Shown one piece after another: positions 1 through 12,282 of a stretch of DNA of 64,000 nucleotides. A model generated the notes under the pieces. The model had not been told where the DNA came from and did no database searches. It saw only the letters and a program-made list of their open reading frames with translations. The translations under genes were made by a program, and so were the position numbers. Source of the DNA: Puniceicoccaceae bacterium (lineage in GTDB: Bacteria; Verrucomicrobiota; Verrucomicrobiia; Opitutales; Oceanipulchritudinaceae); the NCBI GenBank assembly GCA_040830765.1, contig JBFOMH010000005.1:224001-288000 (forward strand). The letters are read 5' to 3'. Every line of letters starts with the position of its first letter. The first letter of the stretch is position 1.

Positions 1-85
1 GCCTGTAGTCCTTTATAATCTACAGGCGGGACGCCTGTAGTCCATTGCCACCTCAAAGGAGTACAGGCATCTTGCCTGTACATTG
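1..85. repeat. Cluster of short REP-like palindromes (truncated at window edge)
   Basis: CTACAGGC-GGGAC-GCCTGTAG (20-40) and GTACAGGC-ATCTT-GCCTGTAC (61-81). GCCTGTAGTCC occurs at 1-11 and 33-43. Lies just downstream of the cytochrome operon. Confidence 0.7.
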
Positions 86-110
86 CTGAACCAAAAGGCT
101 CCCGCTGTTC

Positions 111-1619
111 TTACTGGGGTCCGCCGGTGTGGCAATCGCTGCACAAGAGGCCGGAGACATCCCCGTCCGGGTGGGCGAATTCCAGTCCGCCGGGAGCCAG
201 TTTCAGGAGGTCTGCCCCGGAACCTTGGGCAAGGATAGTATGGCAATCATTGCAGTCACCCGCTTGCATCGGCGCTTCCGTCTCCACGTTGTAGTGGGAG
301 CCGCCATGGCAGCGGAAGCAACCCGGCCAGTTCTTGTGCCCAATGTGGTTCGGATAGGCTGACCAATCCGCCTTCATTTTGGGGAAGAAGTTTTCCGTGT
401 AGATGCGCTGGACTTCCTCGATGGTCGTCTCCACATCCGGCTCCTCCTCGTACTCTGCCAGAAGGCCTTCCCGGATGGCCGCATAGGCCTCTTCGGTGTT
501 CCCGTATTCTCCAACCAGCAGGTCGACCACGGTATACTTGAGGTCGGTGTACTCAGGGTTGAGTCGCTTCAGCGAAATCGCCCGATCGACGGCATCATTG
601 GGTGGCAGAAGGATGTGTGCTGGACGGTTGTGGCAATCCATGCAGTCCATGGTCCGGATTTCATGCCCTTCCAGGTCTTCCATGTCGTAGTCCTCGTGCA
701 TGAAAACCACTTCCTCGGAATCGCCCTTCTTCAGGCGAACCCATGGCACCTCAAGGCGTTTCTCATCGACGGCGATATATTCAACCTTGTTATTCGGATC
801 GGTGTGCCAGTGGATGCCCCTGACATCACCCAGCCGGGGATCGCCACCCCCGACCTTGAGAATAATCCGGGTGGTGAACTCCTCATCGTCATAATCGGCC
901 ATGAAGTGCTCGTAGGTCCGGTCAAGGTTGCCGGTGAAGACCTGCGGCCAGTGGCACTTTTCACAGGTGTCCTGGGCCGGGCGCAGGCTCTCGATGGGCG
1001 TCGGTACCGGTGTCGGGTACTTGTTGGCCAGGGCCGCATAGACCTGATAGAGGCCGTCAATCTTGGCCTTTACATACCACGTCGCTCCTTCACCAATATG
1101 ACACTCCACACAATTGACCCGGGCATGCGGAGACAAGGCGTAGGTCGCATACTCCGGTTCCATGATGGTGTGGCAAACCTCTCCACAAAACATGTTCGAT
1201 TCCGTGAAGTGGTAGGTCTTGTAGCTGCCGAGTGCACTCAGGAAAAGGAATCCCGTTCCACCGGCAATGAAGATGACGAATTTCTTCCGTTCCCGCCGTT
1301 GACTGAAGTCGAGGGAAAACTGCAGGAAGGACGTCTTCCCTTCCAGTTTGCTCAAATAGTAGCGGTCAACCAACCAACCGACAAACATCAGGCAAAGCCC
1401 GAGGATGAGGAAGAATGGTGCGACAATGAAAGTCAGAATGCCCAGATAGGGACTGCTTTCCGCTTGGGTCGCATCCAGCGCAAACAACAGGAAAAAGGCA
1501 AACAGGGCACTGAGGGCACCCACGGCACCGGTTGCCGAGATCCAATTGTTGAACTGGGAAAAGAAGAAACTGCGGCGTCCTTTACCGGAACCGCTTTTGG
1601 GAGAGCTGGGGGAGTTCAT
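111..1619 (-). CDS. Inner-membrane heptaheme cytochrome c, NapC/NirT-related (ImcH-like architecture)
   Basis: Three N-terminal hydrophobic helices. Heme motifs CGEVCH (CX3CH), CVECH, CEKCH, CMDCH, CFRCH, CNDCH, CSDCH. NapC-type segment TES..FCG.VCH..M.PEY..SPH. Confidence 0.85.
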   Translation of the reverse strand: MNSPSSPKSGSGKGRRSFFFSQFNNWISATGAVGALSALFAFFLLFALDATQAESSPYLGILTFIVAPFFLILGLCLMFVGWLVDRYYLSKLEGKTSFLQFSLDFSQRRERKKFVIFIAGGTGFLFLSALGSYKTYHFTESNMFCGEVCHTIMEPEYATYALSPHARVNCVECHIGEGATWYVKAKIDGLYQVYAALANKYPTPVPTPIESLRPAQDTCEKCHWPQVFTGNLDRTYEHFMADYDDEEFTTRIILKVGGGDPRLGDVRGIHWHTDPNNKVEYIAVDEKRLEVPWVRLKKGDSEEVVFMHEDYDMEDLEGHEIRTMDCMDCHNRPAHILLPPNDAVDRAISLKRLNPEYTDLKYTVVDLLVGEYGNTEEAYAAIREGLLAEYEEEPDVETTIEEVQRIYTENFFPKMKADWSAYPNHIGHKNWPGCFRCHGGSHYNVETEAPMQAGDCNDCHTILAQGSGADLLKLAPGGLEFAHPDGDVSGLLCSDCHTGGPQ

Positions 1620-1634
1620 GGCGTGGAAGCGCTA

Positions 1635-1967
1635 TCAGGACTTTGCCATCGCGCGCATATATGCCACAAGGGCGTGAATTTCCTCGTCGGAAAGTTTCTT
1701 GGCGTAGCCCTTCATCTTGGTCCCGTCGACACCATCCTTGGTGGCGTTGAAGAGATCCTCATCGGACATTTCAGTAAGCGCGGCCGGATCCGTGTAATCC
1801 TTGAGCTCGAGCTTTTTACCGAGCGCGGTATCAGCGGAACCATCCTCAGCATGACACTTCTTGCAATGCTTGTCCCAGTTAGCCTTGGTTGCTTCACAAT
1901 TGTCAGCATAGCCCGAAAGGGATGACAGGACAAGTGAGGCAACAGTGACGATTAGGTATTTTTTCAT
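1635..1967 (-). CDS. Periplasmic monoheme class I cytochrome c
   Basis: Signal peptide, single CKKCH, distal Met in KMKGY, C-terminal helix LSDEEIHALVAYMR, Lys-rich. Confidence 0.9.
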   Translation of the reverse strand: MKKYLIVTVASLVLSSLSGYADNCEATKANWDKHCKKCHAEDGSADTALGKKLELKDYTDPAALTEMSDEDLFNATKDGVDGTKMKGYAKKLSDEEIHALVAYMRAMAKS

Positions 1968-1998
1968 GCTTATTATTATTCCTTCTACATTTGGGGGT

Positions 1999-4155
1999 TT
2001 AGAATTTCATTTGCAGGCTTCCATTGAAGACATGCACGCTAAAGTCGGTCATTCCTGCAGTGGCCAGATCGGTTTGTTCATAGTAATGGTAGCCGATCCG
2101 GGCAGCCATGTTTGATGTGAAATGGAAGAAAACACTGGCCGTCCCGTGGTGTTGTTCAATCTCACTCCCGTAAGGGACGGTGATGGCAGCATTGTCGACA
2201 TAGTTATCAATCTCCATGTAATTATAACCAACTTGGATATCAATAAGGGACGTGAGGACAAAATACAAGCTTACATCAGCCTGCCAGTAGTCATTGGGAA
2301 TGTTGACAATGATACCCGAGAAGGTGCCTTCCAGGTCGGCCGTGGGCACTTCCGTAAGGTCATCAACGAGTGTGTAATTACCGGTGATAATGAACCGTGG
2401 ATGGGGTGCCCAGGTCAATGCCTGGTTGAAAACCACCCGCTCGCGATCGGAGGTCCGCAGCTCATCATTGAGCCGGTCCCGGCTATCGATGGTGGTGTTT
2501 TGGAAATCGACCCGGCTGACACTACGCAGGGTATCGAGTATCTTCCAGTGAACCCGGGCGTTGAGGTCTTCCGTATAGAAATCCTGATACTCAATGTATC
2601 CGGGATACAGTGTGAAGTCCGCATCCGGAATAGTCACGTTGGCAAAGTCGTACTCGTTCTTGCGTGACTTGATATAACCTTCAACGGATATGCGCATCCG
2701 GCGGAAAGGATCGTAATTCAAGCCCACTTCCCAGAAGGTCGTTTCACGGTCAAAGCCAGTAGCACGATCCAGGAGCCTCTCAAGTGAACCCGGATTGGGC
2801 AGGATTTCGGTGCGGGTCCATCCTTCCTTGAGATCCCCGGACTGGGTCGCAGCCTCAACTCGTGTATAGACTAATGTCTTGGGAATCCCCTTGAAGCGAA
2901 ATTCAAGAAAACCGGAAATGTCCTCGGCCGTCTTGTCACTGACGGAGAACATGTCCGCTTCCTGGTTCTGCCGCTGGAGGTCACCGAAGTCGACCGTATC
3001 GAAGGTATCGAAATAGGATCCCATGGCTTCCGTGGACAGGTGCTCAAGGCGCACGCCGGCCATCCAGCGGTAGCTTCCCTGCGGTTCATAGACCAGGTTC
3101 CCATTGAATATCCATTGCTTCAGTTTACGAGACCCGTCGAGATCGAGGAATCCGCGGTCATCAAGTTGGGACCGGGCAAAGTCGATGTCGTAAGCGGCAT
3201 CCGGATTGGCACCGAACACCCGGCTGCCCGTGACGTCGCCGTCAAGCTGGGTGTAGGCCATGCCAATAGAGCCACTGAGATTGTCAGTCATCGCCCGGCG
3301 GACATATCCGGAGAATCCAAAGAGGTCATCCTTCGTTTCCTGCTGGTGGGTCGCGTAGCGGTTGGCCCGGGCGTCGCTGGCTCCCCGTTCCACCGTCAAC
3401 TTCTTGTCGGATTCCCGGCTCTGGTAAAAGGCCCGGGCGCCTGCTCGATTGATTTCCTCCTTGTGTTCAATCCCGATTTCAACCTTGTGGACCGTTTCCT
3501 GCCCTTCCGACAAGGCCGGGACAATTCCCCGGGACTTCGGTTGCCCACTGACCCGGTACTGGTAGTTGTCACCAAATACGGTGGAAAGGCTTTGGCCTTC
3601 CCGGTTGAAGAAGTCATAAGCGACCCTCAGCTGCAGGGTGTCGGTCGGCTTGAAACGCAGACTGACTTTCAACTGATCAATTTCCTCCTCCAAGGCGGAA
3701 TCGGAAAGTGTAAAATAGGCATTCCTTGGGGCATACCAGACGCCCCCTCCAAAGTCGAATTCCACCCAATGGCGGAACTCGAGGTCGAAGAAGATCTCCT
3801 CCAGTTTGAAGGCCTCAATGGTCAGCGAAAGCTCATCCGGATTGACCAGCCAGCGGCCATCCATAAGGAAGCGCCAGTCCGCATAAGGATCGTTCTCGTA
3901 GTGGAAGTTTTCCACCCCGCCACCATCCTTGTCGAGCACACGAACGGACTCAGCGGCCTGACCAAGATTGGCATCATCCTCGAATTCCGAACTGGTGTAG
4001 GTGAAACTAAGCTCATTCTGGCGTGGTTCCGGTTCTTCGGTATCACTGGTGTAAAACTGGACTCCGGAAACCGAGGCCGGCAAGAACATGGCACTGGATA
4101 AGGCCAGCCAGGTGAGTTGTTTAAAACAGGCTGTTTTCATTGCATTGTCCTCCAT
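1999..4155 (-). CDS. Outer-membrane beta-barrel porin, MtrB/PioB-like by context
   Basis: 718 aa, signal peptide, alternating aromatic beta-strand pattern, terminal Phe (..GSLQMKF). Directly downstream of an MtrA/DmsE-like cytochrome. Confidence 0.75.
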   Translation of the reverse strand: MEDNAMKTACFKQLTWLALSSAMFLPASVSGVQFYTSDTEEPEPRQNELSFTYTSSEFEDDANLGQAAESVRVLDKDGGGVENFHYENDPYADWRFLMDGRWLVNPDELSLTIEAFKLEEIFFDLEFRHWVEFDFGGGVWYAPRNAYFTLSDSALEEEIDQLKVSLRFKPTDTLQLRVAYDFFNREGQSLSTVFGDNYQYRVSGQPKSRGIVPALSEGQETVHKVEIGIEHKEEINRAGARAFYQSRESDKKLTVERGASDARANRYATHQQETKDDLFGFSGYVRRAMTDNLSGSIGMAYTQLDGDVTGSRVFGANPDAAYDIDFARSQLDDRGFLDLDGSRKLKQWIFNGNLVYEPQGSYRWMAGVRLEHLSTEAMGSYFDTFDTVDFGDLQRQNQEADMFSVSDKTAEDISGFLEFRFKGIPKTLVYTRVEAATQSGDLKEGWTRTEILPNPGSLERLLDRATGFDRETTFWEVGLNYDPFRRMRISVEGYIKSRKNEYDFANVTIPDADFTLYPGYIEYQDFYTEDLNARVHWKILDTLRSVSRVDFQNTTIDSRDRLNDELRTSDRERVVFNQALTWAPHPRFIITGNYTLVDDLTEVPTADLEGTFSGIIVNIPNDYWQADVSLYFVLTSLIDIQVGYNYMEIDNYVDNAAITVPYGSEIEQHHGTASVFFHFTSNMAARIGYHYYEQTDLATAGMTDFSVHVFNGSLQMKF

Positions 4156-4157
4156 GA

Positions 4158-4955
4158 CTAGAACCTCAGTGAGCCGTTCACGTGGGAACCATGGACCGCC
4201 TCATGACAACCAGCGGTCCAGCAGGTACCCTGCTGAATGTAGCCAAAGCCGGAGTGGTCCACTCCGCCAATCATAATGGCATTCTGCTGGGTCTCGGTGA
4301 AGTGGCATTGCAGGCACAAGCTGGCGTTGCGGATCTTCAGCATCTTGTCATTGACGCTTCCGTGCTGCTCGTGACAAACGGTGCAACCGTCCCGCATGGC
4401 TTCATGTTCAAAGACGAATGGACCCGACTGGGCCGGATGACATTCCGCACAGGAACCGCTCTCCGCCGCCAGGATACCTTCAGCGAACAATTCCTTATCC
4501 TCATTTCCATGCGGATCATGGCAGTCAACACAAGCCACCATCCCCTCGGCAACCGGATGACTGTGCGGTAAGGCGAATTGTCCCTGGACATCAAGGTGGC
4601 ACTGCAGGCAGGCCTCGGGATTGCGGCCGGGATTGTGAATCAGGTGCCGGCCCTCGCCTTCCATCGAGTGGAGGCTTCCGGGACCATGGCAGGCTTCACA
4701 GCCGACGATGATATCGTCCTCGTCAGGAATCAAAAGCCGGGCGTGAACTGTATTGTCCACGGTCCGGCTTATGTCCTCGTGGCAGAGGCTACAATCCTCA
4801 TTGCCAACGAACTCTGCTCCTTTCGTCTGCGGCACCACGAGCACCGTGCGGTTGACTGACTGGCAGGCAATCAGTCCTACCGCCACGGCGCCCATGGTTA
4901 CCCACAAACGAGAACTCAGGAACATTTTTAGGGGGGTGTTATTGAGCTTCATCAA
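4158..4955 (-). CDS. MtrA/DmsE-family multiheme cytochrome c (8 heme motifs), probable lipoprotein
   Basis: CSLCH, CEACH, CLQCH, CVDCH, CAECH, CTVCH, CLQCH plus CWTAGCH (CX4CH). Family-typical GCEACHGPGSLH, CHDPHG, GPFVFEH, VHGS. Lipobox-like GLIAC. True start may be a later Met. Confidence 0.85.
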   Translation of the reverse strand: MMKLNNTPLKMFLSSRLWVTMGAVAVGLIACQSVNRTVLVVPQTKGAEFVGNEDCSLCHEDISRTVDNTVHARLLIPDEDDIIVGCEACHGPGSLHSMEGEGRHLIHNPGRNPEACLQCHLDVQGQFALPHSHPVAEGMVACVDCHDPHGNEDKELFAEGILAAESGSCAECHPAQSGPFVFEHEAMRDGCTVCHEQHGSVNDKMLKIRNASLCLQCHFTETQQNAIMIGGVDHSGFGYIQQGTCWTAGCHEAVHGSHVNGSLRF

Positions 4956-4996
4956 GGCATGAGCATGATGGGCTGATTTTTAATCTGCAACCTCAA

Positions 4997-7120
4997 TTAC
5001 TCCACGACTGTCCAATCTCCAGCATTGTAGTTCCAGAAGTACCGCATGCCGGCGTAGCGGCCGCTGTAGTACATCCAGGTGGCAGCGCTCAGGTCATACA
5101 TGAGCGGATAGACTTCCTCGTTGGTCCACTTCCAGGAATTGGTGCGGACGTCGTAGAGGTAGATGGTGCTGGAATCACCGGTCACATAGAGGTGGCCGTG
5201 CTCGAAGTGGTAGATCCAGCCCGTTTCGCTTTGCGGGGCATAGAACTCAAACCACTGTGAGTAGAACCACTCCCCACCGACGGGGATATTGGCACCGTTG
5301 AAGAGACCCGTGTAGGGATCCGAGACTGCCTCGATGGAGGCCTTGAGGATTTGGGCCACATAGCGCGGATTGTGCATCCCGTGACTGCCGTCTTCCTCAA
5401 CTGCCATGTAGTTGTACAGGGCCTTTGCTTCCATTGGGGTATAATCGAGATCGGGATCCCGGACGACTCTTGGTTCGCCATAAGGCGGCAGCTTCATGGC
5501 CAGGGCTTCGAGCAGATGGTGGATTTCCGTCTGCAGGCCTTCGAGATGGCCGTCATAGTTGTAGTCGACGGTCGGGATGTCGAAGGTGTCGAGCGGGCCG
5601 TGGCACTGGTAGCAAGCACCGGTCAGCGGCACGTCATCAGAATGGTCTTCCGGTGTGTCATTGTCCCAGACAATCTTGAAGGTGTGGTCACCAGCCTTGT
5701 TGTGGAACGGATCGTTGTTACGGTCCGTTGACTGCATGTGGCAGGAGGCACAGCTGTTTTCAAGAATGTAGAGGTGGGAGGAGGCTCCGCCCTGGACCTT
5801 GTCAAACTCAACGAGGTTGGTCCCGTTGAAGATGTCACCCTGGACCCCGTAGTGCGGGCCGAAGTGACTCGAGGTCACGCCCCGGTCCGTGTAGGAGTCC
5901 GCATCGCGACGGGCCTTGTGGCAGTTCATGCAGAACTTTCCGGTACCCCCTTCAGTGACCATGTGGCCATTCTCCAGTTCGATGTCAGCGAGGGTCCTCA
6001 GCTGATGTTCGTTTTCAGCACTGTGCGGATCGTGACAGGCGGCACAGACGATGGCTTCATACTCGAAGCTCTTCTCTTCTTGCGGGACGCCGTCCATTTC
6101 CTCAATGAAACCAATACCGCTGTGGCAACGGACACAGCTCAAGCGGCGCTCTGACCCGGTTGGGTAACGGGTGGCGACCGAGTGAGCGGAAAGGTTCCAC
6201 TGCTGATTGCGATTATGGTAGGGTTCCTCGTCGTGGCACTGGCCGCAATCACCGGAGCTGAGGCTGACGGCTGTTGTGGTCAGATCACCATGGTGCTCGC
6301 TACCGGCACCGTGGCAATGCTCACACTGGATATTGGCCTTGGCCTGCAGGGCCGGGTCCATGCCTGCCCAAACACCGGGCTCAAGGACTTCCGGGAATGT
6401 CCAGCCGACCGACTCCGCAACCGCGGAGAAGCTGCCGTTGTCAACGCCTTCGACGTGACCACCCAATGTGTGGCACTCGATGCAGTTGGAATTATAGTGG
6501 CTGCTCTTGAGGCCGTCGATGGCTTCCGTGAACATCGAAGCGTGGCCGGTGCCCATGTAATTGACAGCCTGCTCCCCATGGCAAAGGGCGCACTGAGGAT
6601 AACTGGGAGATGCTCCGCCCATGAGTCCAACACCAACGTAGGTGGCACCGGTGACCTGTGCGGTCAGGACCAGGGCTTCGGCGTCCGTCTGGACAACGGC
6701 CTGGACCATGTACTTCCCGACGGCGTCAGGAACGAAGAGCTTGCGTCCGGCGACATCAAGGACTTCGCGGTCGCCGGGAGAATAAATTGGTAAATCACCG
6801 AGGGGGGAATCCTCTAGCTCGGCCACTGAGGGCGGACTGGCCAGGGGGCGCTGTTCGATGCTCCAGGTCACTCCGTTGACAACAGTTCCAGAAGGAACCT
6901 GTGCTTCCAGATAAACCGGTTCGCCAACCGCCACAACAAGCAGGCCAGCCGAGGCATGGACGCCTTCAGGCAGTTCGTTGTCGTGAATCTCCTGAGGTGT
7001 CAGGGGACGGGCGTCTATCTTCTGCGCCAAGGTCATGTTGGTGCCGGCGAATAAAACGACAGCTGCCAAGATGAGCGTTATCGGTGTAGTATATCTCGTT
7101 ATTAGTCGGGGATGTTTCAT
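4997..7120 (-). CDS. Secreted nonaheme cytochrome c with N-terminal beta-rich domain and Trp/Tyr-rich C-terminal domain
   Basis: Signal peptide. CALCH, CIECH, CEHCH, CGQCH, CVRCH, CAACH, CMNCH, CASCH, CYQCH, then EDGSHGMHNPRY. Last ~95 aa strongly W/Y-rich. Confidence 0.85.
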   Translation of the reverse strand: MKHPRLITRYTTPITLILAAVVLFAGTNMTLAQKIDARPLTPQEIHDNELPEGVHASAGLLVVAVGEPVYLEAQVPSGTVVNGVTWSIEQRPLASPPSVAELEDSPLGDLPIYSPGDREVLDVAGRKLFVPDAVGKYMVQAVVQTDAEALVLTAQVTGATYVGVGLMGGASPSYPQCALCHGEQAVNYMGTGHASMFTEAIDGLKSSHYNSNCIECHTLGGHVEGVDNGSFSAVAESVGWTFPEVLEPGVWAGMDPALQAKANIQCEHCHGAGSEHHGDLTTTAVSLSSGDCGQCHDEEPYHNRNQQWNLSAHSVATRYPTGSERRLSCVRCHSGIGFIEEMDGVPQEEKSFEYEAIVCAACHDPHSAENEHQLRTLADIELENGHMVTEGGTGKFCMNCHKARRDADSYTDRGVTSSHFGPHYGVQGDIFNGTNLVEFDKVQGGASSHLYILENSCASCHMQSTDRNNDPFHNKAGDHTFKIVWDNDTPEDHSDDVPLTGACYQCHGPLDTFDIPTVDYNYDGHLEGLQTEIHHLLEALAMKLPPYGEPRVVRDPDLDYTPMEAKALYNYMAVEEDGSHGMHNPRYVAQILKASIEAVSDPYTGLFNGANIPVGGEWFYSQWFEFYAPQSETGWIYHFEHGHLYVTGDSSTIYLYDVRTNSWKWTNEEVYPLMYDLSAATWMYYSGRYAGMRYFWNYNAGDWTVVE

Positions 7121-7167
7121 TGGTATACCTTGATGAGCTATTAAAAACTTTAACTCTATGTATACAC

Positions 7168-7231
7168 ATTATAACGAAATCGAATACCTGCGTAGCGAGT
7201 ATTTGTGCTCAGATGTGGTAATATTTTACCA
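7168..7231 (-). promoter_or_regulatory. Probable activator-dependent promoter of the cytochrome operon
   Basis: Perfect TATAAT on minus strand (7173-7168) with no recognisable -35. Palindrome TGGTAA-TATT-TTACCA at 7216-7231. Imperfect inverted repeat TACCTGC-GTA-GCGAGTA at 7185-7201. Confidence 0.55.
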
Positions 7232-7280
7232 ATTTCTAAACCCCGAAACGCCGCCCCGGAAGGGTGGCCTGAGGCACCGC

Positions 7281-8399
7281 CTAAAGCCGGTGTGTTTCCC
7301 GGTACTTGGCCGGGCTCATATCCTTGTAGCGTCGGAAGACCTTGGAGAAGTAACTCTGGTCGCAGAATCCGGTTTCGTTGGCTATATGAGCAAGGGTGTT
7401 GGAGGACCGGACCAGCAGCATGCAGGCCCGCTCAATGCGGTACTGGTTGAGCAGGTCGGTGAAGGTCCGGCCCTTCTTTTCGCGGATAAGCCGGGAAAAG
7501 TGACTCGGGCTGATACCGACCGCCTTGGCAACGGATTCCCGGGTCAGGTCCTCACTGATGTGGTTCTCGAGGTAGGTGGTGGCCTTCTCGATGAGCAAGT
7601 CGTCAGGATTCTTCGGACTTTGCCGTGAAAAGAGGCTGAAGCGGTTGAAAAAGGACTCCAGGAGGACCATGATGGCTGCCTTGTCCTGGGCGGAGGACAA
7701 GGTATGCAGCAGGGAGCCTGCCTCGGAAAAGGCAGCGTAGGCGTCCATTCCGCCCCGGGTGAATTGCCGCTTGGTCTCGTAGACGAGATCCCCGACAAGT
7801 CCACGAAGCAGGTCAACCGGAAGATCCGGGGATTCCATGAAGGCGGACCGGAGCTTGTTGAAATGCTTCTCGGCAGCCTCAAATTCGGCCATTTGCATGC
7901 TGTCGATGAGCTCCTTGCCAAATTGGTCGAACTGCTCTCTCAACTGCTGGAAATCCTTGCGATGGACAAAGCGGTGGATGTTGCCGAGATCCTTGGGCCC
8001 CAGGTGGCTCAAATCGGGCAGGATCTGATGTTCTTCCATGAGCCGGTAGAGCTCGGCACAGGCATCGCTGAACTTGTCCTCGTCGAGGACGCCCTCCTGC
8101 TCACCGCCGATGACGATCAAGCCGCCGACAGTCTTCCCGTTGACGGCAAAGGGCAGTCCCCAGAGAATGTAGCCTTGGTGGCAGGCATCAATGCAGACTT
8201 TCCCGGTCCGCAGCGCTTCTGAGACGATTTGCTCCCGGCATTCGCGGCAGGATCGCATGCAGGGAAACTTGTCGCAATCCGGAAGGCCCATCTGGATGGC
8301 CCCGTTGGTATCCGAAAGGACCAGGTTATACCCGGTCCGGCTCTCGTAAGTCTCCTGGAGCTGCCTGAAAAAAGCGGGGTTGAAGGTACCGTTTAACAT
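7281..8399 (-). CDS. AraC-family regulator with N-terminal PocR-like sensor domain
   Basis: C-terminal double HTH (ISPSHFSRL..GFCDQSYFSKVFRR..SPAKYR). N-terminal CHQG..GLPF..NGKTVGGL resembles PocR. Start reassigned to ATG 8399. Confidence 0.8.
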   Translation of the reverse strand: MLNGTFNPAFFRQLQETYESRTGYNLVLSDTNGAIQMGLPDCDKFPCMRSCRECREQIVSEALRTGKVCIDACHQGYILWGLPFAVNGKTVGGLIVIGGEQEGVLDEDKFSDACAELYRLMEEHQILPDLSHLGPKDLGNIHRFVHRKDFQQLREQFDQFGKELIDSMQMAEFEAAEKHFNKLRSAFMESPDLPVDLLRGLVGDLVYETKRQFTRGGMDAYAAFSEAGSLLHTLSSAQDKAAIMVLLESFFNRFSLFSRQSPKNPDDLLIEKATTYLENHISEDLTRESVAKAVGISPSHFSRLIREKKGRTFTDLLNQYRIERACMLLVRSSNTLAHIANETGFCDQSYFSKVFRRYKDMSPAKYRETHRL

Positions 8400-8455
8400 C
8401 GGGGGAACTGCCCCAAATGATGGCTCACCGGATACCTGTCTGGCAACGCTTTTTC

Positions 8456-10300
8456 TCACTCTGCAATTTCCTTTCTGAGGCGGACCGGAAAGAGCCATTC
8501 GAGGAATATCATGGCGAATTGGGAGAACCAGAACACCAGAAGCCAGAAAAAGGCACTATCCATGAATCCGTAGGAGTGCAGACCGACGCCGAGCATATTT
8601 GTTCCAAACCACGACCAGGCCGTGATGACATTCCCGATGATGGAGAGATTGACCAGCCCACGGGTCTTGATGAGACCGCCCCGCAGGGCATGGAGGATCA
8701 TGGCCGTCCAGAGGACAATCATGAGGGCCCCGTTTTCCTTCGGATCCCAGCCCCAGAAGCGTCCCCATGACTGGTCAGCCCAGATGCCGCCAAGGACTGT
8801 CCCGACAAAGCTGAAGAGCAGGGAAAAACAAACAGCGCCATAGATCATCCGGTGGAAGGACTGCTGCATCTCCTTGGGCATTCCACTCCGGGTACGGAAC
8901 CAGCCGTTCAAAGTGTAAATAATGCCCAGGAAGCCGGCCAGGAATGTGGCTCCATAGCCCATCGTAATCGTGATCACGTGGGTACTGAGCCAGAAGTTGG
9001 AATTCAGGACGGCCCGCATCTTCTCCATCGTGTCGCCGGTATCGGAAAGATGGTGCGCGACCAGCAGGGTCAGGAAACCAACTGTTGCCGCGGCTAGTGA
9101 CCCGACACCCTTGCGTTGGAAGTGCTCAAAGATGAGGCTCAGCAGAACCGCTACCCAGCCGACAAAAACAGCTGAGGAATAGAGGTTTGTCACCGGTGCA
9201 TAGCCGGTAATGATCACCCGCAGGACCAGTCCGGCGGTGTGAATGACAAAGCCAATCCACAAGATCCGGTAGGCATTGGCGAGGAACACCTTGGGCGTAA
9301 AGAGCCAGCCGAGGAAAACCAGCAGGGTCACAAGGACATAAAGAGCCAAAGCGACGATAAAGGGTTGGCTCTGGTTGAAATAGAACTCCATCACCGGATG
9401 CTCGCCGGTTTTGGCAACCGCGGGAGCGAAAGCCGCCAGCTCTGCGGCAGCTTCGGCAAAGGCCTCGGCATCCCCACCCTGCCTGGCCTGGGCCAGCTTG
9501 CCAAGGGTGACCATTTGCTCGGGAAGGCCACCGGTCATCGGAATGCCCTCGACCATGACGTCGCCGGGTTTCTTCCACTCCCCATTGTAGTTGAGCAGGA
9601 AGATGGTAGTCCGGGACATTTCGCTAAGCTGCTGCATGTGCATGCGCAGCATCGGGGAATCGAGGTTCTGGGGCGTTGACTGGCCCGAAGCGGCAAACTG
9701 GTTGGCCGCCTCCATGACACTGTTGACGACTCCGTTGTAGAAGCTCGGTACACTCTGTCGCAAACGCAGCGGATACACCGTCTGGGCAACCATCTGGTAG
9801 AGGGCCAGATTGCCATAGAGCTGGTTGATCGCCGTCTCGTAGGAATTGCGTTGCTTGCTGTCGGGATTTATCTGCCGGGCCTGCTCCTGGACCTTCATCA
9901 GGTAAGGCTCCAGATCCGCATAGCTGAAGTACTTCTTTGTCCCGGCTTCAAGGCCGAACATGCCCAGGATATCCGGGTGATCGATGCGGAAAACCGGTAT
10001 CTTGTCTGCTTCCTGACGATCGAAGAGCACCTCCGTCAACCAGTCGATGGCTTCCACCTTGCGACGCTCGGTGGTCCCGTCTTCCAGTTCGGCCTTGTAC
10101 TTGATGGATTGCTTGCCGCGGATAAGCAGAAGGGTGTGCCGGGCAACGGCATCCAAGGGCTTGACGCGTCCTCCTTCAAGTACCGGCATTTGACCGAGGA
10201 CCGCCTCGGCGGAGGTGTCCGGCTTGACCAGGGGTTGGGCCACCGGCCAGATGCAGAGCAGCGCCAGTAACCAGATAATGCTAATACCTGCCCATTTCAT
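8456..10300 (-). CDS. ccsA: Cytochrome c biogenesis protein CcsA/ResC (system II) with periplasmic extension
   Basis: WWD motif WADQSWGRFWGWDPKEN and GLHSYG. Start ATG 10300 overlaps the upstream stop (TAATG). Confidence 0.9.
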   Translation of the reverse strand: MKWAGISIIWLLALLCIWPVAQPLVKPDTSAEAVLGQMPVLEGGRVKPLDAVARHTLLLIRGKQSIKYKAELEDGTTERRKVEAIDWLTEVLFDRQEADKIPVFRIDHPDILGMFGLEAGTKKYFSYADLEPYLMKVQEQARQINPDSKQRNSYETAINQLYGNLALYQMVAQTVYPLRLRQSVPSFYNGVVNSVMEAANQFAASGQSTPQNLDSPMLRMHMQQLSEMSRTTIFLLNYNGEWKKPGDVMVEGIPMTGGLPEQMVTLGKLAQARQGGDAEAFAEAAAELAAFAPAVAKTGEHPVMEFYFNQSQPFIVALALYVLVTLLVFLGWLFTPKVFLANAYRILWIGFVIHTAGLVLRVIITGYAPVTNLYSSAVFVGWVAVLLSLIFEHFQRKGVGSLAAATVGFLTLLVAHHLSDTGDTMEKMRAVLNSNFWLSTHVITITMGYGATFLAGFLGIIYTLNGWFRTRSGMPKEMQQSFHRMIYGAVCFSLLFSFVGTVLGGIWADQSWGRFWGWDPKENGALMIVLWTAMILHALRGGLIKTRGLVNLSIIGNVITAWSWFGTNMLGVGLHSYGFMDSAFFWLLVFWFSQFAMIFLEWLFPVRLRKEIAE

Positions 10301-11511
10301 TATTTGATCCTCCGGGTCATGCGGTATCCCGCAACAGTGAACTGCCAACACAGGCCGATGGAGACGAGGATGCAGGCGATGTAAGGCACCAGCCATCCGG
10401 GATTCTTGACCACCTGGAACATGGATGCCGTATCCTGCTTGGCAAAGGAGGCCTGGTAATAGGTGCGTCCTTCGTAACGCAACGGATTGTTCATGAATAT
10501 CATGACTTCCTTTTCGTCCCCGTTCACAGCGTGCTCCACCCGTACCCGACTGGAGAAGTTGCTGGGAATATTCGTTCCGGGATAGCGGTCATGGTTGAAT
10601 TCAAGCAAGGTGATGGTGTAGGGAAGATAGGTCTTCTTGAAGCGGAGTCCGATCTGGTAGACCTGTCCGTCCACTGTGAATTCCTGCTCCGGGAAACGCT
10701 CCTCAAAAACGTTCGAGACCAGCCAGGATCCGACAACGTCACCCGCACTGAGGACATCCACGACTGCCGTGCGAATGTCCCGGCGCTCATCACTGTTGAA
10801 GGAGCCAATCGCCTTCACGCCAAGATTGAACTGGGCCCCGATGCCGCGTGTGACACCAAAGGTTTCCCGGCCCATGGCCGCCCCACCCTGGTTGATCTCG
10901 GCGTTATTGAAGACCTCCCGCACTCTCAGCTGAAGGGGAAAGAGTCCCGGTTGACCGGGAACTTCCGGTTCCAGCATCATTCCCTTTTTAAGATCCTTGA
11001 AATCGTAGGAAAAGACTCCGAGGCGACCGTCTTCCTTCTGCTTGGTCAGGTAGAACTCGTCCTCATGGAAACTGCGGATGAAATTGGCCTTACCGCCTTC
11101 ATCAAGCCACATGTAGTCTTCCTCCTGGAAGATATTGGTCACCAGCTGGCCAACCAGCAGCATGAGGATGCCGACATGGATAAAGCTGATCCCCATAATG
11201 GACCAGCGGGGCCGCCAGTAGCGCGCATGGGCAAGGACCAGATTCAGGGCCAGCAGGGGGCCAATGAGGTAGCCACCGGGGAGAACCACCGGAATGAACT
11301 TCAGGAAATTGCCTGCAGGCCAGAATTCCGGATAGCGCCAGATGGCGATAAAGCTTTCGAAGTAGATATCCTGGGCCTGGCGAATGCCGATCCGGACTTG
11401 GTCGAGCGTGCCGAAAAAGACCAGCAGGACAGAGAAACCGAGCAGGAAAACTGATAACCTGAGGGATCCCAACTCCTTCAAAAGCCGCTTCAAAAACGGG
11501 AGTATATGCAT
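10300..11511 (-). CDS. Cytochrome c biogenesis protein ResB/CcsB-like
   Basis: N-terminal SLRLSV..TM, conserved His in IHVGILMLLVG, C-terminal MNNPLRYEGRTYYQASF..NPG. Translationally coupled to ccsA. Confidence 0.8.
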   Translation of the reverse strand: MHILPFLKRLLKELGSLRLSVFLLGFSVLLVFFGTLDQVRIGIRQAQDIYFESFIAIWRYPEFWPAGNFLKFIPVVLPGGYLIGPLLALNLVLAHARYWRPRWSIMGISFIHVGILMLLVGQLVTNIFQEEDYMWLDEGGKANFIRSFHEDEFYLTKQKEDGRLGVFSYDFKDLKKGMMLEPEVPGQPGLFPLQLRVREVFNNAEINQGGAAMGRETFGVTRGIGAQFNLGVKAIGSFNSDERRDIRTAVVDVLSAGDVVGSWLVSNVFEERFPEQEFTVDGQVYQIGLRFKKTYLPYTITLLEFNHDRYPGTNIPSNFSSRVRVEHAVNGDEKEVMIFMNNPLRYEGRTYYQASFAKQDTASMFQVVKNPGWLVPYIACILVSIGLCWQFTVAGYRMTRRIK

Positions 11512-11518
11512 GGGGAAT

Positions 11519-12193
11519 TTAGAATTTTATCGAGTCGATGAAAGCACCGTAAGAATCCAACTCTCCCTCAACAGCTGAAGCCGGTCCGGCCATCTTGAAA
11601 AACCAGGTCTTGCCGTTATGGGAAACGGCGGAGACCACCATCTGGATAGCTTCACCACCAGCCGTTACCCCGGCCGGGCCAGTCAAGGACACCTGCCAGC
11701 CGTCCATTCCGGAAATCTCCACCTGCTTGACCAGGGCCAATGCGGAATCCGGGTCCAGTGGCGGGAGTCCGACCTGGCGGCGCCAGCGGTTGATATTAGC
11801 GGCTTGGCCGCCAACATCCCCCGCGAAAGCGCTCACCGAGACATCCGCCATGTTTTCCGGAGGCGTTCCGGTCTGGAAAGCTTTCAGGACCATACTTGAG
11901 GGGGCTTTCTCCACCCAGCCCTGCGGCAAAGAGAATCCGAATCCAGCCGCCGGGGCGGCGTGGGCGGAATGGTCGTGGCCATCGTGCTCGGAATGACCCT
12001 CGGGCAATTCCGCTTGCGGGCTTTCCGCAACTTCCTGGACTTCGACGTATTCCGGCTCAGCCTTGCCGCATCCGGAAATAAAGGTGGCCAAAGCCATGGA
12101 AACCATGATCAGGCCGGCATTGAAACAGGCTGCTCCGGAAAGGCCTCGAGGGCGTCCCGGCTCGACTCCATTATCAGTTGTAATAGGGGGCAT
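11519..12193 (-). CDS. His-rich lipoprotein of unknown function, first gene of the ccs operon
   Basis: Lipobox ISGC, LPEGHSEHDGHDHSAH, domain with GG..ANINRWRRQVGL and WFFKMAGP. Start uncertain (12193 or later). Confidence 0.65.
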   Translation of the reverse strand: MPPITTDNGVEPGRPRGLSGAACFNAGLIMVSMALATFISGCGKAEPEYVEVQEVAESPQAELPEGHSEHDGHDHSAHAAPAAGFGFSLPQGWVEKAPSSMVLKAFQTGTPPENMADVSVSAFAGDVGGQAANINRWRRQVGLPPLDPDSALALVKQVEISGMDGWQVSLTGPAGVTAGGEAIQMVVSAVSHNGKTWFFKMAGPASAVEGELDSYGAFIDSIKF

Positions 12194-12282
12194 GGCGCAA
12201 AGGTAACCATCCCGTTTCACTGTAGTCAAGTAAGGCCGGAAATGATTTTCCGAAAAAACATCAAGGCACTTAAGGGAGCTTC

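Follow-up and report, generated by a model that had tools for sequence, protein, structure and literature searches.

The 64,000-nucleotide stretch analysed here (the window; positions 224,001 to 288,000 of contig JBFOMH010000005.1, from a Puniceicoccaceae bacterium of the phylum Verrucomicrobiota) carries a cluster of cytochrome genes that may well encode an extracellular electron-transfer chain. The source genome is 3.99 Mb in size and 96.9% complete. Nine open reading frames (ORFs), all on the minus strand, occupy window positions 111-12229 in the order given by an earlier sequence-only reading. The features are listed below; likely true starts of ccsA, the porin gene and araC (about 8459) were taken from those of homologues.

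11519..12229, minus strand: lipoprotein of an unnamed family, lipobox Cys54; the true start is probably 12193 or later.
10300..11511, minus strand: ResB/Ccs1-like System II cytochrome c synthase subunit (PF05140).
8456..10300, minus strand: CcsA/CcsB System II heme lyase (PF01578; TIGR03144 below cut-off); the listed ORF is 8456-10396, and the likely start at 10300 is coupled to the resB stop.
7281..8498, minus strand: PocR-sensor AraC regulator (PF10114 and PF12833).
7168..7219, minus strand: predicted internal promoter of the five wire genes (conserved box and -10).
4997..7120, minus strand: secreted nonaheme cytochrome, nine CxxCH motifs, OcwA/OmhA-type core by profile.
5009..5269, minus strand: Trp/Tyr-rich tail domain of about 87 amino acids (nonaheme residues 618-704), a candidate surface anchor.
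4158..4955, minus strand: octaheme MtrA/DmsE-like cytochrome, lipobox Cys31, a predicted lipoprotein.
1999..4155, minus strand: 718-amino-acid porin, modelled as an MtrB-fold, 26-strand outer-membrane beta-barrel; likely start 4140.
1635..1967, minus strand: periplasmic class I monoheme cytochrome c, His/Met (Met87), PF13442/PF00034.
111..1619, minus strand: ImcH-family heptaheme cytochrome, 502 amino acids, three transmembrane helices, CX3CH plus six CxxCH.

Canonical CxxCH motifs number 23 (nine in the nonaheme, seven in the octaheme, one in the monoheme and six in the heptaheme). Two atypical motifs, CX4CH in the octaheme (CWTAGCH, residue 245) and CX3CH in the heptaheme (CGEVCH, residue 145), bring the total to the 25 (9+8+1+7) counted at the outset. 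Both look genuine because they are conserved among homologues and CX3CH is part of the published description of ImcH: the Cys and His of CX4CH are invariant in all 31 octahemes, one homologue having a plain CxxCH there, and all 23 heptahemes keep the CX3CH residues. Pfam recognises the PocR and AraC, Cytochrom_C_asm, ResB, NapC/NirT and class I cytochrome c domains; the porin and the lipoprotein matched no Pfam or NCBIfam family. Among 12 same-genus genomes (Oceanipulchritudo-like Opitutales; four additional records repeating genus loci were left out of counts), eight contain the porin, and all eight keep the nine-gene order beside recR, at 45-98% identity, so the arrangement is not due to chance. 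Two of the four porin-less genomes are near-complete and the other two are 68% and 84% complete, the latter with ccsA and araC on a short contig. The cluster ends at position 111, beyond which lie convergent genes that by eye resemble sugar catabolism. Four short repetitive extragenic palindromic (REP)-like hairpins, two of them identical, separate the heptaheme stop from the convergent gene (window 1-110; L001:14900-15110).

The 718-amino-acid protein is, on the evidence of its predicted structure, an MtrB-fold barrel. An AlphaFold2 model from a 62-sequence alignment, used instead of a single-sequence model with a pLDDT of 28.7, reached a pLDDT of 90.0 and a pTM of 0.83 and has 26 long strands by DSSP, the number found in MtrB-type barrels. 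MtrB was the best match both in Foldseek (6R2Q_B, E 2.2e-13, TM-score 0.62) and in VIA (Z 25.0, root-mean-square deviation 3.7 Å over 564 residues; next Z 16.3). Sequence and profile searches of the PDB did not return MtrB, the link being seen by fold comparison alone, and MtrB_PioB (PF11854) does not match the window protein; three of its 62 homologues match, with a best E of 3.5e-6. The adjacent octaheme aligns to MtrA (6R2Q_A, E 1.5e-25) over MtrA hemes 1-2 and 5-10, with one two-heme repeat absent, and is thus the shortened MtrA that had been proposed; it scores below the cut-off of the decaheme DmsE/MtrA family (TIGR03508, 148.4 bits against 192.2). A Cys following its hydrophobic leader is invariant in 31 of 31 homologues and corresponds to a lipobox.

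The octaheme is predicted to lie inside the barrel. Modelled together, the pair scored 0.90 against 0.00 for the best of three controls, past a mark reached by 116 of 157 solved pairs and 2 of 215 mismatched pairs; this agrees with the earlier suggestion that the barrel could house the cytochrome, but as MtrAB is a solved complex, the pass may come from that structure and would show likeness and not binding. The runs share at least 76% of contacts, with partner pLDDT of at least 75. Contacts fall on alternate residues of most barrel strands and are tightest between the last octaheme heme motif and barrel residues 161-163, at the long-loop end.

Porin-cytochrome clusters had been said to be predicted in Verrucomicrobia, and He et al. 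2017 (PMC5615132) indeed describe clusters in which a novel porin with 20 or more strands adjoins a periplasmic cytochrome of eight hemes; some of the clusters also include an extracellular multiheme gene, homologues exist in Opitutus, and the function is given as hypothetical. The window cluster is likely identical in kind to those loci, as compared by description. Our porin profile has matches in 33 of 401 phylum genomes, of which two are marginal. At 20 porin loci outside the genus, sampled from about 30 in the phylum, the octaheme is adjacent in all 20, accompanied by the monoheme in 13, ImcH in 11, ResB in nine, CcsA in eight and the lipoprotein in seven; neither the nonaheme nor PocR-AraC occurs at any of the 20. 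Three porin homologues (L112, L116, L117) have a fused N-terminal monoheme domain and resemble a described Limisphaera porin; the Limisphaera porins were described as unrelated to MtrB, one having an N-terminal heme (PMC13608581). The N-terminal heme on these three homologues hints that they belong to the same family.

The nonaheme is OcwA/OmhA-like and not MtrC-like, judged by profile comparison. It comprises a signal peptide (about residues 1-32), an N-terminal PKD/Ig-like region (PKD matches are seen in homologues), a nine-heme core with a C-terminal three-helix region (together about residues 175-600) and the aromatic tail. A single-sequence search of the PDB gave no match; a 90-row profile matched 6I5B (OcwA, E 2.5e-37), 6QVM (OmhA, 1.3e-24) and NrfA (4e-12). 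Its alignment to 6I5B spans heme 1, hemes 3-9 and the helices, heme 2 being placed by count. The protein has neither a TIGR03507 match nor the lipobox Cys of an MtrC/OmcA decaheme lipoprotein, in line with the expected non-MtrC outer cytochrome. A weak Pfam match to an MtrC/MtrF domain was rejected as a generic CxxCH signal that also picks up the octaheme and unrelated multihemes.

OcwA of Thermincola potens is a cell-surface nonaheme whose hemes 2 and 5 are open under His-His motifs (PMC6703420). Seven distal His residues are conserved in the window protein (193, 276, 313, 366, 449, 479 and 583), six of them in 87-90 of 88-90 non-gap rows and H449 in 77 of 88. By our mapping, these residues serve seven of the hemes, His449 occupies the position of the OcwA heme 9 Met, and hemes 2 and 5 would be open as in OcwA. 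At the His-His sites over hemes 2 and 5, H302 is kept in 68 of 85 rows and H423 in 87 of 88, each with a partner that is Tyr here and His in 30-35 homologues; the distal pairs of the predicted open hemes are Tyr-His and His-Tyr, and Arg404 is near-invariant (83 of 88).

These open hemes raise the prospect that the nonaheme, periplasmic or on the surface, is chiefly a reductase of nitrite, nitric oxide, hydroxylamine or another oxyanion, fed by an NrfH-like ImcH, with the porin-octaheme pair as a separate or accessory outlet. The profile matches the NrfA/MccA/ONR superfamily, the distal pairs and Arg404 would suit such chemistry, and no NrfA above cut-off was found in the genome. Yet the CxxCK motif is absent from all 90 rows, and an enzyme acting on soluble anions has no need of a surface tail or of being co-transcribed with a porin and its cytochrome. 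The sequence-only reading had counted an N-oxyanion enzyme as a refutation of the wire; the two are not exclusive, because OcwA reduces iron oxide, electrodes, anthraquinone-2,6-disulfonate (AQDS) and flavins and also nitrite and hydroxylamine, with a low nitrite turnover of 1 per min (PMC6703420). As a principal function, oxyanion reduction seems to us unlikely.

The nonaheme family is large, with at least 630 clusters at E ≤ 1e-30; homologues occur in 12 of the 401 phylum genomes. That Gram-negative bacteria have OcwA-related nonahemes is not new in itself, since the tree of Gavrilov 2021 (PMC7829351) includes them, given without gene context in the accessible text. In metagenomes (28 of 77 loci scanned), a nonaheme homologue lies within 10 kb of the porin-octaheme family at seven loci; at one of these it is immediately upstream, and at the other six a second multiheme intervenes. 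That second protein, located between nonaheme and octaheme (L135, L136, L138, L139, L144, L163), is a divergent 8-9-heme cytochrome with no recognised tail, and could be a porin-docked adaptor.

A Trp/Tyr-rich domain like the nonaheme tail occurs on 33 ORFs of the source genome, 29 times at the C-terminus and four times just after the signal peptide; reversed ORFs gave no matches to the profile. Of 30 carriers scanned, 18 had Pfam matches, and the passengers include a subtilase with Ig/cadherin domains, chondroitinase B, nucleases, BspA leucine-rich repeats, GH88, CotH and fasciclin. The tail has no NCBIfam match and no credible PDB match; its Atlas look-alikes are unnamed and mostly from Verrucomicrobiota, and it occurs in 13 of 401 phylum genomes and in all five of its own family. 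At the same position, homologues carry other tails. In a Pfam scan of 54 of 150 nonaheme representatives, 28 had Por_Secre_tail (17) or FlgD_ig alone (11), and the nearest Atlas model cluster (TM-score 0.84, 1184 members) is 98% Por_Secre_tail. When the tails of 79 homologues were labelled by profile and pattern, 31 were like those of the type IX secretion system (T9SS), 22 of a W..FYR type, 12 aromatic and 14 other; on a FastTree phylogeny with midpoint root the types change repeatedly, and the closest relatives outside the genus clade carry the other two tails. This exchange with T9SS-type and other Verrucomicrobia tails is good indirect evidence that the nonaheme is exported, and suggests surface display.

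The copies of the tail domain that are N-terminal point to an anchoring role more than to a signal that is cleaved off. PF18962 (Por_Secre_tail) did not match the window nonaheme, a scan of the host genome with PF11751 and PF18962 gave no matches but left the positive controls unmatched as well, and the W..FYR profile matched no ORF in the source genome. The genome has a type II secretion-like operon, with GspD and GspE just under cut-off. A 926-amino-acid secreted hexaheme with Ig domains (C4:207133-209916), whose end looks W..FYR-like by eye and is unmatched by the tail profile, is a second candidate surface cytochrome.

At the inner membrane, the heptaheme is an ImcH-family protein on all published sequence characters, as had been predicted. 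Zhong and Shi (PMC6295460) describe ImcH as 495-519 amino acids long with three N-terminal transmembrane helices and CX3CH followed by six CxxCH; the window protein has 502 amino acids, three hydrophobic segments and the same motifs. The residues named for the His/Gln heme 1 and the quinol site of Geobacter ImcH (bioRxiv 10.1101/2023.05.03.539133), E127, H137, K173, Q179 and Y188, correspond at a constant offset of +13 to E140, H150, K186, Q192 and Y201, a match by published positions and not by alignment of the Geobacter sequence. Four are invariant in 23 of 23 homologues and the fifth is Tyr/Phe in 22. By analogy with Geobacter ImcH, the heptaheme would oxidise menaquinol. In the accessible text of the 2018 survey (PMC6295460), ImcH is reported from Fe(III) reducers only and as a quinol oxidase only, and no mtrAB or mtoAB adjoins imcH.

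The monoheme had been likened to the periplasmic shuttle MtoD, and this did not hold. MtoD is a bis-His class I monoheme, whereas here Met87 is kept in 12 of 12 homologues and His98 is not conserved, which rules out an MtoD identity; the best PDB match is Kuenenia c-552 (7O38, E 4.7e-8).

The five wire genes probably have a promoter of their own. The 160-nucleotide gap before the nonaheme contains a box of the form ACC-N5-TGAGC-N6-(G/A)CTC(A/G), which starts exactly 38 nucleotides before a TATAAT/TATACT -10 element in eight of nine genomes and 48 before it in the ninth. The -35 is poor, for which reason a sigma-70 scan missed the promoter; this activator-type layout, together with the conserved box, makes control by an activator probable. 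The adjacent Cys-rich PocR-AraC protein is our likeliest candidate for that activator, although a near-palindromic box would equally suit a CRP/FNR-type factor. Its PocR sensor has Cys at positions 75, 80, 84, 87, 102, 106 and 147, plus H107, invariant in seven of seven aligned genus orthologues, and is possibly a metal or Fe-S redox sensor. Scanning the genome with the box revealed two further strong sites. One (C5:115165) lies 38 nucleotides before a TATACT, ahead of a FAD oxidoreductase and cyclic nucleotide (cNMP)-binding pair; the oxidoreductase is present in one of the 12 genus genomes. The other (C17:257171) precedes the gene of a fasciclin protein whose aromatic domain is N-terminal; DUF6599, DUF362, 4Fe-4S and aldo/keto reductase genes come next. 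With these two as the extra sites, a regulon was not established.

The heme-attachment genes, by comparison, do not belong to the wire in the sense first proposed. ResB and CcsA, with the tryptophan-rich motif WGRFWGWD, form a System II pair (PF05140, PF01578). They probably serve as housekeeping machinery, shared rather than private, because the window ResB is the sole one detected in the genome and similar resB/ccsA pairs are present in porin-less relatives. A second, short ccsA-like gene lies on C10 between hemH-like and hemA-like genes. The lipoprotein is directly beside resB in nine of nine genus loci and is present in 7 of 20 other porin loci; since it travels with resB/ccsA, it is probably an accessory of cytochrome c maturation rather than a wire part. 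It had been called His-rich; it is indeed a lipoprotein by its lipobox, but the His-rich patch is not conserved among aligned homologues. Its family by resB/ccsA (window 11519-12229; L104, L106, L107, L114, L144, L163) is unnamed in the libraries and is a candidate unrecognised System II accessory, whose longer forms of 364-447 amino acids may be tandem duplicates.

The direction of electron flow was weighed against the redox genes of the host. The genome contains two CbcL-like cytochromes, alternative complex III and cbb3 genes. The CbcL-like genes form a divergent pair (C7:42366-46799; L060:9367-13800) with 13 and 11 CxxCH and a cytochrome b domain, adjoining the gene of a 1548-amino-acid protein that bears the aromatic tail; in other Opitutales (L102, L105, L109), pairs of this sort border the conduit. 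An octaheme tetrathionate-reductase family protein above cut-off (C17:118028-119677), an HAO/HDH-like octaheme (C18:73877-75346) and an operon of monoheme, tetraheme and DsrO/DsrP-like genes (C27:91002-94150) would give the host broad equipment for anaerobic redox reactions. The genome search returned no form I/II RuBisCO; the sole RuBisCO-like gene (C32:23388-24719; L230:5388-6719) is closest to OiaX, a sugar-acid decarboxylase, beside an OiaK-like kinase, so autotrophy was rejected in favour of sugar-acid catabolism. Because of the ImcH and OcwA/OmhA precedents, the two CbcL-like genes and the lack of a carbon-fixing RuBisCO, we lean towards outward transfer.

Several observations speak against such an outward wire. 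The cultured type species of the family is recorded as an obligate aerobe. Class I cytochromes with His/Met ligation often have potentials above those of MtrA hemes, and a high-potential monoheme of this kind would be easier to reconcile with inward flow or a link to an oxidase; Geobacter ImcH shows a preference for the low-potential PpcA (bioRxiv 10.1101/2023.05.03.539133). The nonaheme is not an obligatory porin partner, because it is absent from 20 of 20 non-genus porin loci and, at the nine nonaheme loci scanned of ten retrieved from genomes of other lineages, the porin was not within range (ImcH was in four). As for display, the tail is N-terminal in four of 33 proteins, counter to a classic C-terminal sorting signal, and a crude signal-peptide test separated carriers (22 of 33) only weakly from background (606 of 1338).

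A conduit running inward or both ways would accept electrons from Fe(II), reduced humics or a cathode and pass them from nonaheme to octaheme to monoheme and on to cbb3 oxidase or quinone, a supplementary source of energy at oxic-anoxic boundaries on the logic of MtoAB-MtoD. The Mto systems likewise have a class I monoheme next to a pair of MtrAB type, the genome includes cbb3 and alternative complex III genes, the family is described as aerobic, and porin-octaheme pairs of other families lack the outer cytochrome, as do PioAB and MtoAB. Against it, the accessible text of PMC6295460 reports ImcH from no Fe(II) oxidiser, both OcwA and OmhA act as terminal reductases, the monoheme lacks the bis-His ligation of MtoD, and the genome search for form I/II RuBisCO was negative. 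We regard inward or two-way flow as improbable.

The wire might also serve a sugar-fermenting heterotroph as an electron sink, or reduce Fe(III) and bring it into solution for uptake, and not support growth by respiration. Its patchy presence, with no porin found in two near-complete same-genus genomes, the neighbouring genes that look like sugar catabolism and the electroneutral nature of ImcH (bioRxiv 10.1101/2023.05.03.539133) would suit such a role. On the other hand, 25 hemes and CbcL-like paralogues are a large investment, no iron-uptake genes are seen in the cluster, and the promoter box is not Fur-like by eye. We give this explanation little credence.

We hold it to be reasonably probable that the cluster encodes an extracellular electron-transfer chain which runs outward and operates under oxygen scarcity. 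The ImcH-type cytochrome would oxidise menaquinol at its His/Gln heme 1, and a periplasmic carrier, probably the adjacent monoheme, would relay the electrons, this being the weakest step. The lipid-anchored octaheme, modelled inside the 26-strand barrel with its N-terminus periplasmic and its last heme at the outer mouth, would conduct them across the outer membrane as in MtrAB. The OcwA/OmhA-type nonaheme, exported perhaps by the type II system and held by its aromatic tail, would discharge them to Fe(III)/Mn oxides, humic quinones, flavins or electrodes, with a possible side activity on N-oxides at its two open hemes. An activator-type promoter would drive the five wire genes, most plausibly through the Cys-rich AraC protein, while ResB/CcsA would be the cell's general heme-attachment system, located next door. 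Of the hybrid quinone-to-surface wire envisaged by the sequence-only reading, the MtrB-fold barrel, ImcH and the non-MtrC outer cytochrome are retained, and the private heme attachment and the MtoD analogy are not.

OcwA and OmhA are terminal Fe(III) reductases on the surface of Gram-positive bacteria (PMC6703420, PMC7829351), and nonahemes of this type have so far been characterised on Gram-positive cell walls only. We tentatively propose, as a serious possibility short of a firm expectation, that the nonaheme as surface terminal reductase of an ImcH-fed MtrB-fold conduit represents a third type of wire terminus within a wide tail-swapping family, with the aromatic tail as an Oceanipulchritudinaceae anchor and the Cys-rich PocR-AraC as a redox switch. 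This family spans Ignavibacteriota, Calditrichota, KSB1 and Verrucomicrobiota, with lineage-specific tails including the T9SS type.

The conduit itself is real and conserved, and its porin-octaheme core was already predicted in Verrucomicrobia in 2017 (PMC5615132). The structural link to MtrB is new, as are the predicted lipidation of the octaheme, the adjacency of ImcH and the OcwA-type outer cytochrome with exchangeable tails. In the literature accessible to us we found no published description of the ImcH linkage or OcwA-type outer module of such conduits, no publication on ImcH linked to a porin in Opitutus, no published link between an OcwA-type nonaheme and a porin conduit, and none that connects T9SS with multiheme cytochromes and electron transfer. 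For the phylum, respiration with Fe(III) was first described in 2026, Limisphaera strains reducing ferrihydrite by a pathway not identified in the accessible text (PMC13608581). Through our analysis, what had been loosely described as a novel porin-cytochrome of Verrucomicrobia becomes a defined chain, open to testing, in one small operon. If correct, iron and humic reduction could be coupled to the breakdown of sugars in common marine and soil Verrucomicrobia that degrade polysaccharides, and surface nonahemes with secretion-type tails would form a widespread family.

Compared with the clusters of He et al. 2017 (PMC5615132), the window cluster likewise pairs a porin of 20 or more strands with an eight-heme cytochrome; their text calls the clusters non-homologous to Shewanella systems, and in its accessible parts does not name ImcH, the monoheme, the OcwA link, the lipobox or the tail. 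With Shewanella MtrAB(C) (6R2Q), PioAB and MtoAB(D) it has in common the MtrB fold and an MtrA-like cytochrome predicted inside the barrel, and with Mto an adjoining monoheme gene. It differs in that the octaheme has eight hemes instead of ten and is a predicted lipoprotein, the barrel is 10% identical, the outer partner belongs to the NrfA/c554 superfamily and not to MtrC, the inner partner is ImcH rather than CymA or MtoC, and the monoheme is His/Met. On the model, the conduit would work like MtrAB yet fall outside strict membership (eight hemes, no Pfam match). The heptaheme resembles Geobacter sulfurreducens ImcH in length, three transmembrane helices, CX3CH plus six CxxCH and the five named residues; unlike there, its gene adjoins an MtrAB-type pair in a cluster without a Ppc-type triheme gene.

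The nonaheme shares with OcwA (6I5B) and OmhA of Carboxydothermus ferrireducens (6QVM) nine hemes in register, the three-helix C-terminus and the predicted openness of hemes 2 and 5. Their His-His pairs are Tyr-His and His-Tyr here, heme 9 is probably bis-His (H449) instead of His/Met, an N-terminal Ig/PKD-like region and the aromatic tail are added, and the host is a diderm with a porin conduit. The tail, finally, parallels the T9SS C-terminal domain (PF18962) and FlgD_ig tails, which occupy the same position on the same cytochrome core in homologues and, like it, are common to many unrelated exported proteins; it differs from them in having no detected sequence similarity, in being aromatic-rich, in its additional N-terminal use and in its occurrence in 13 of the 401 phylum genomes.

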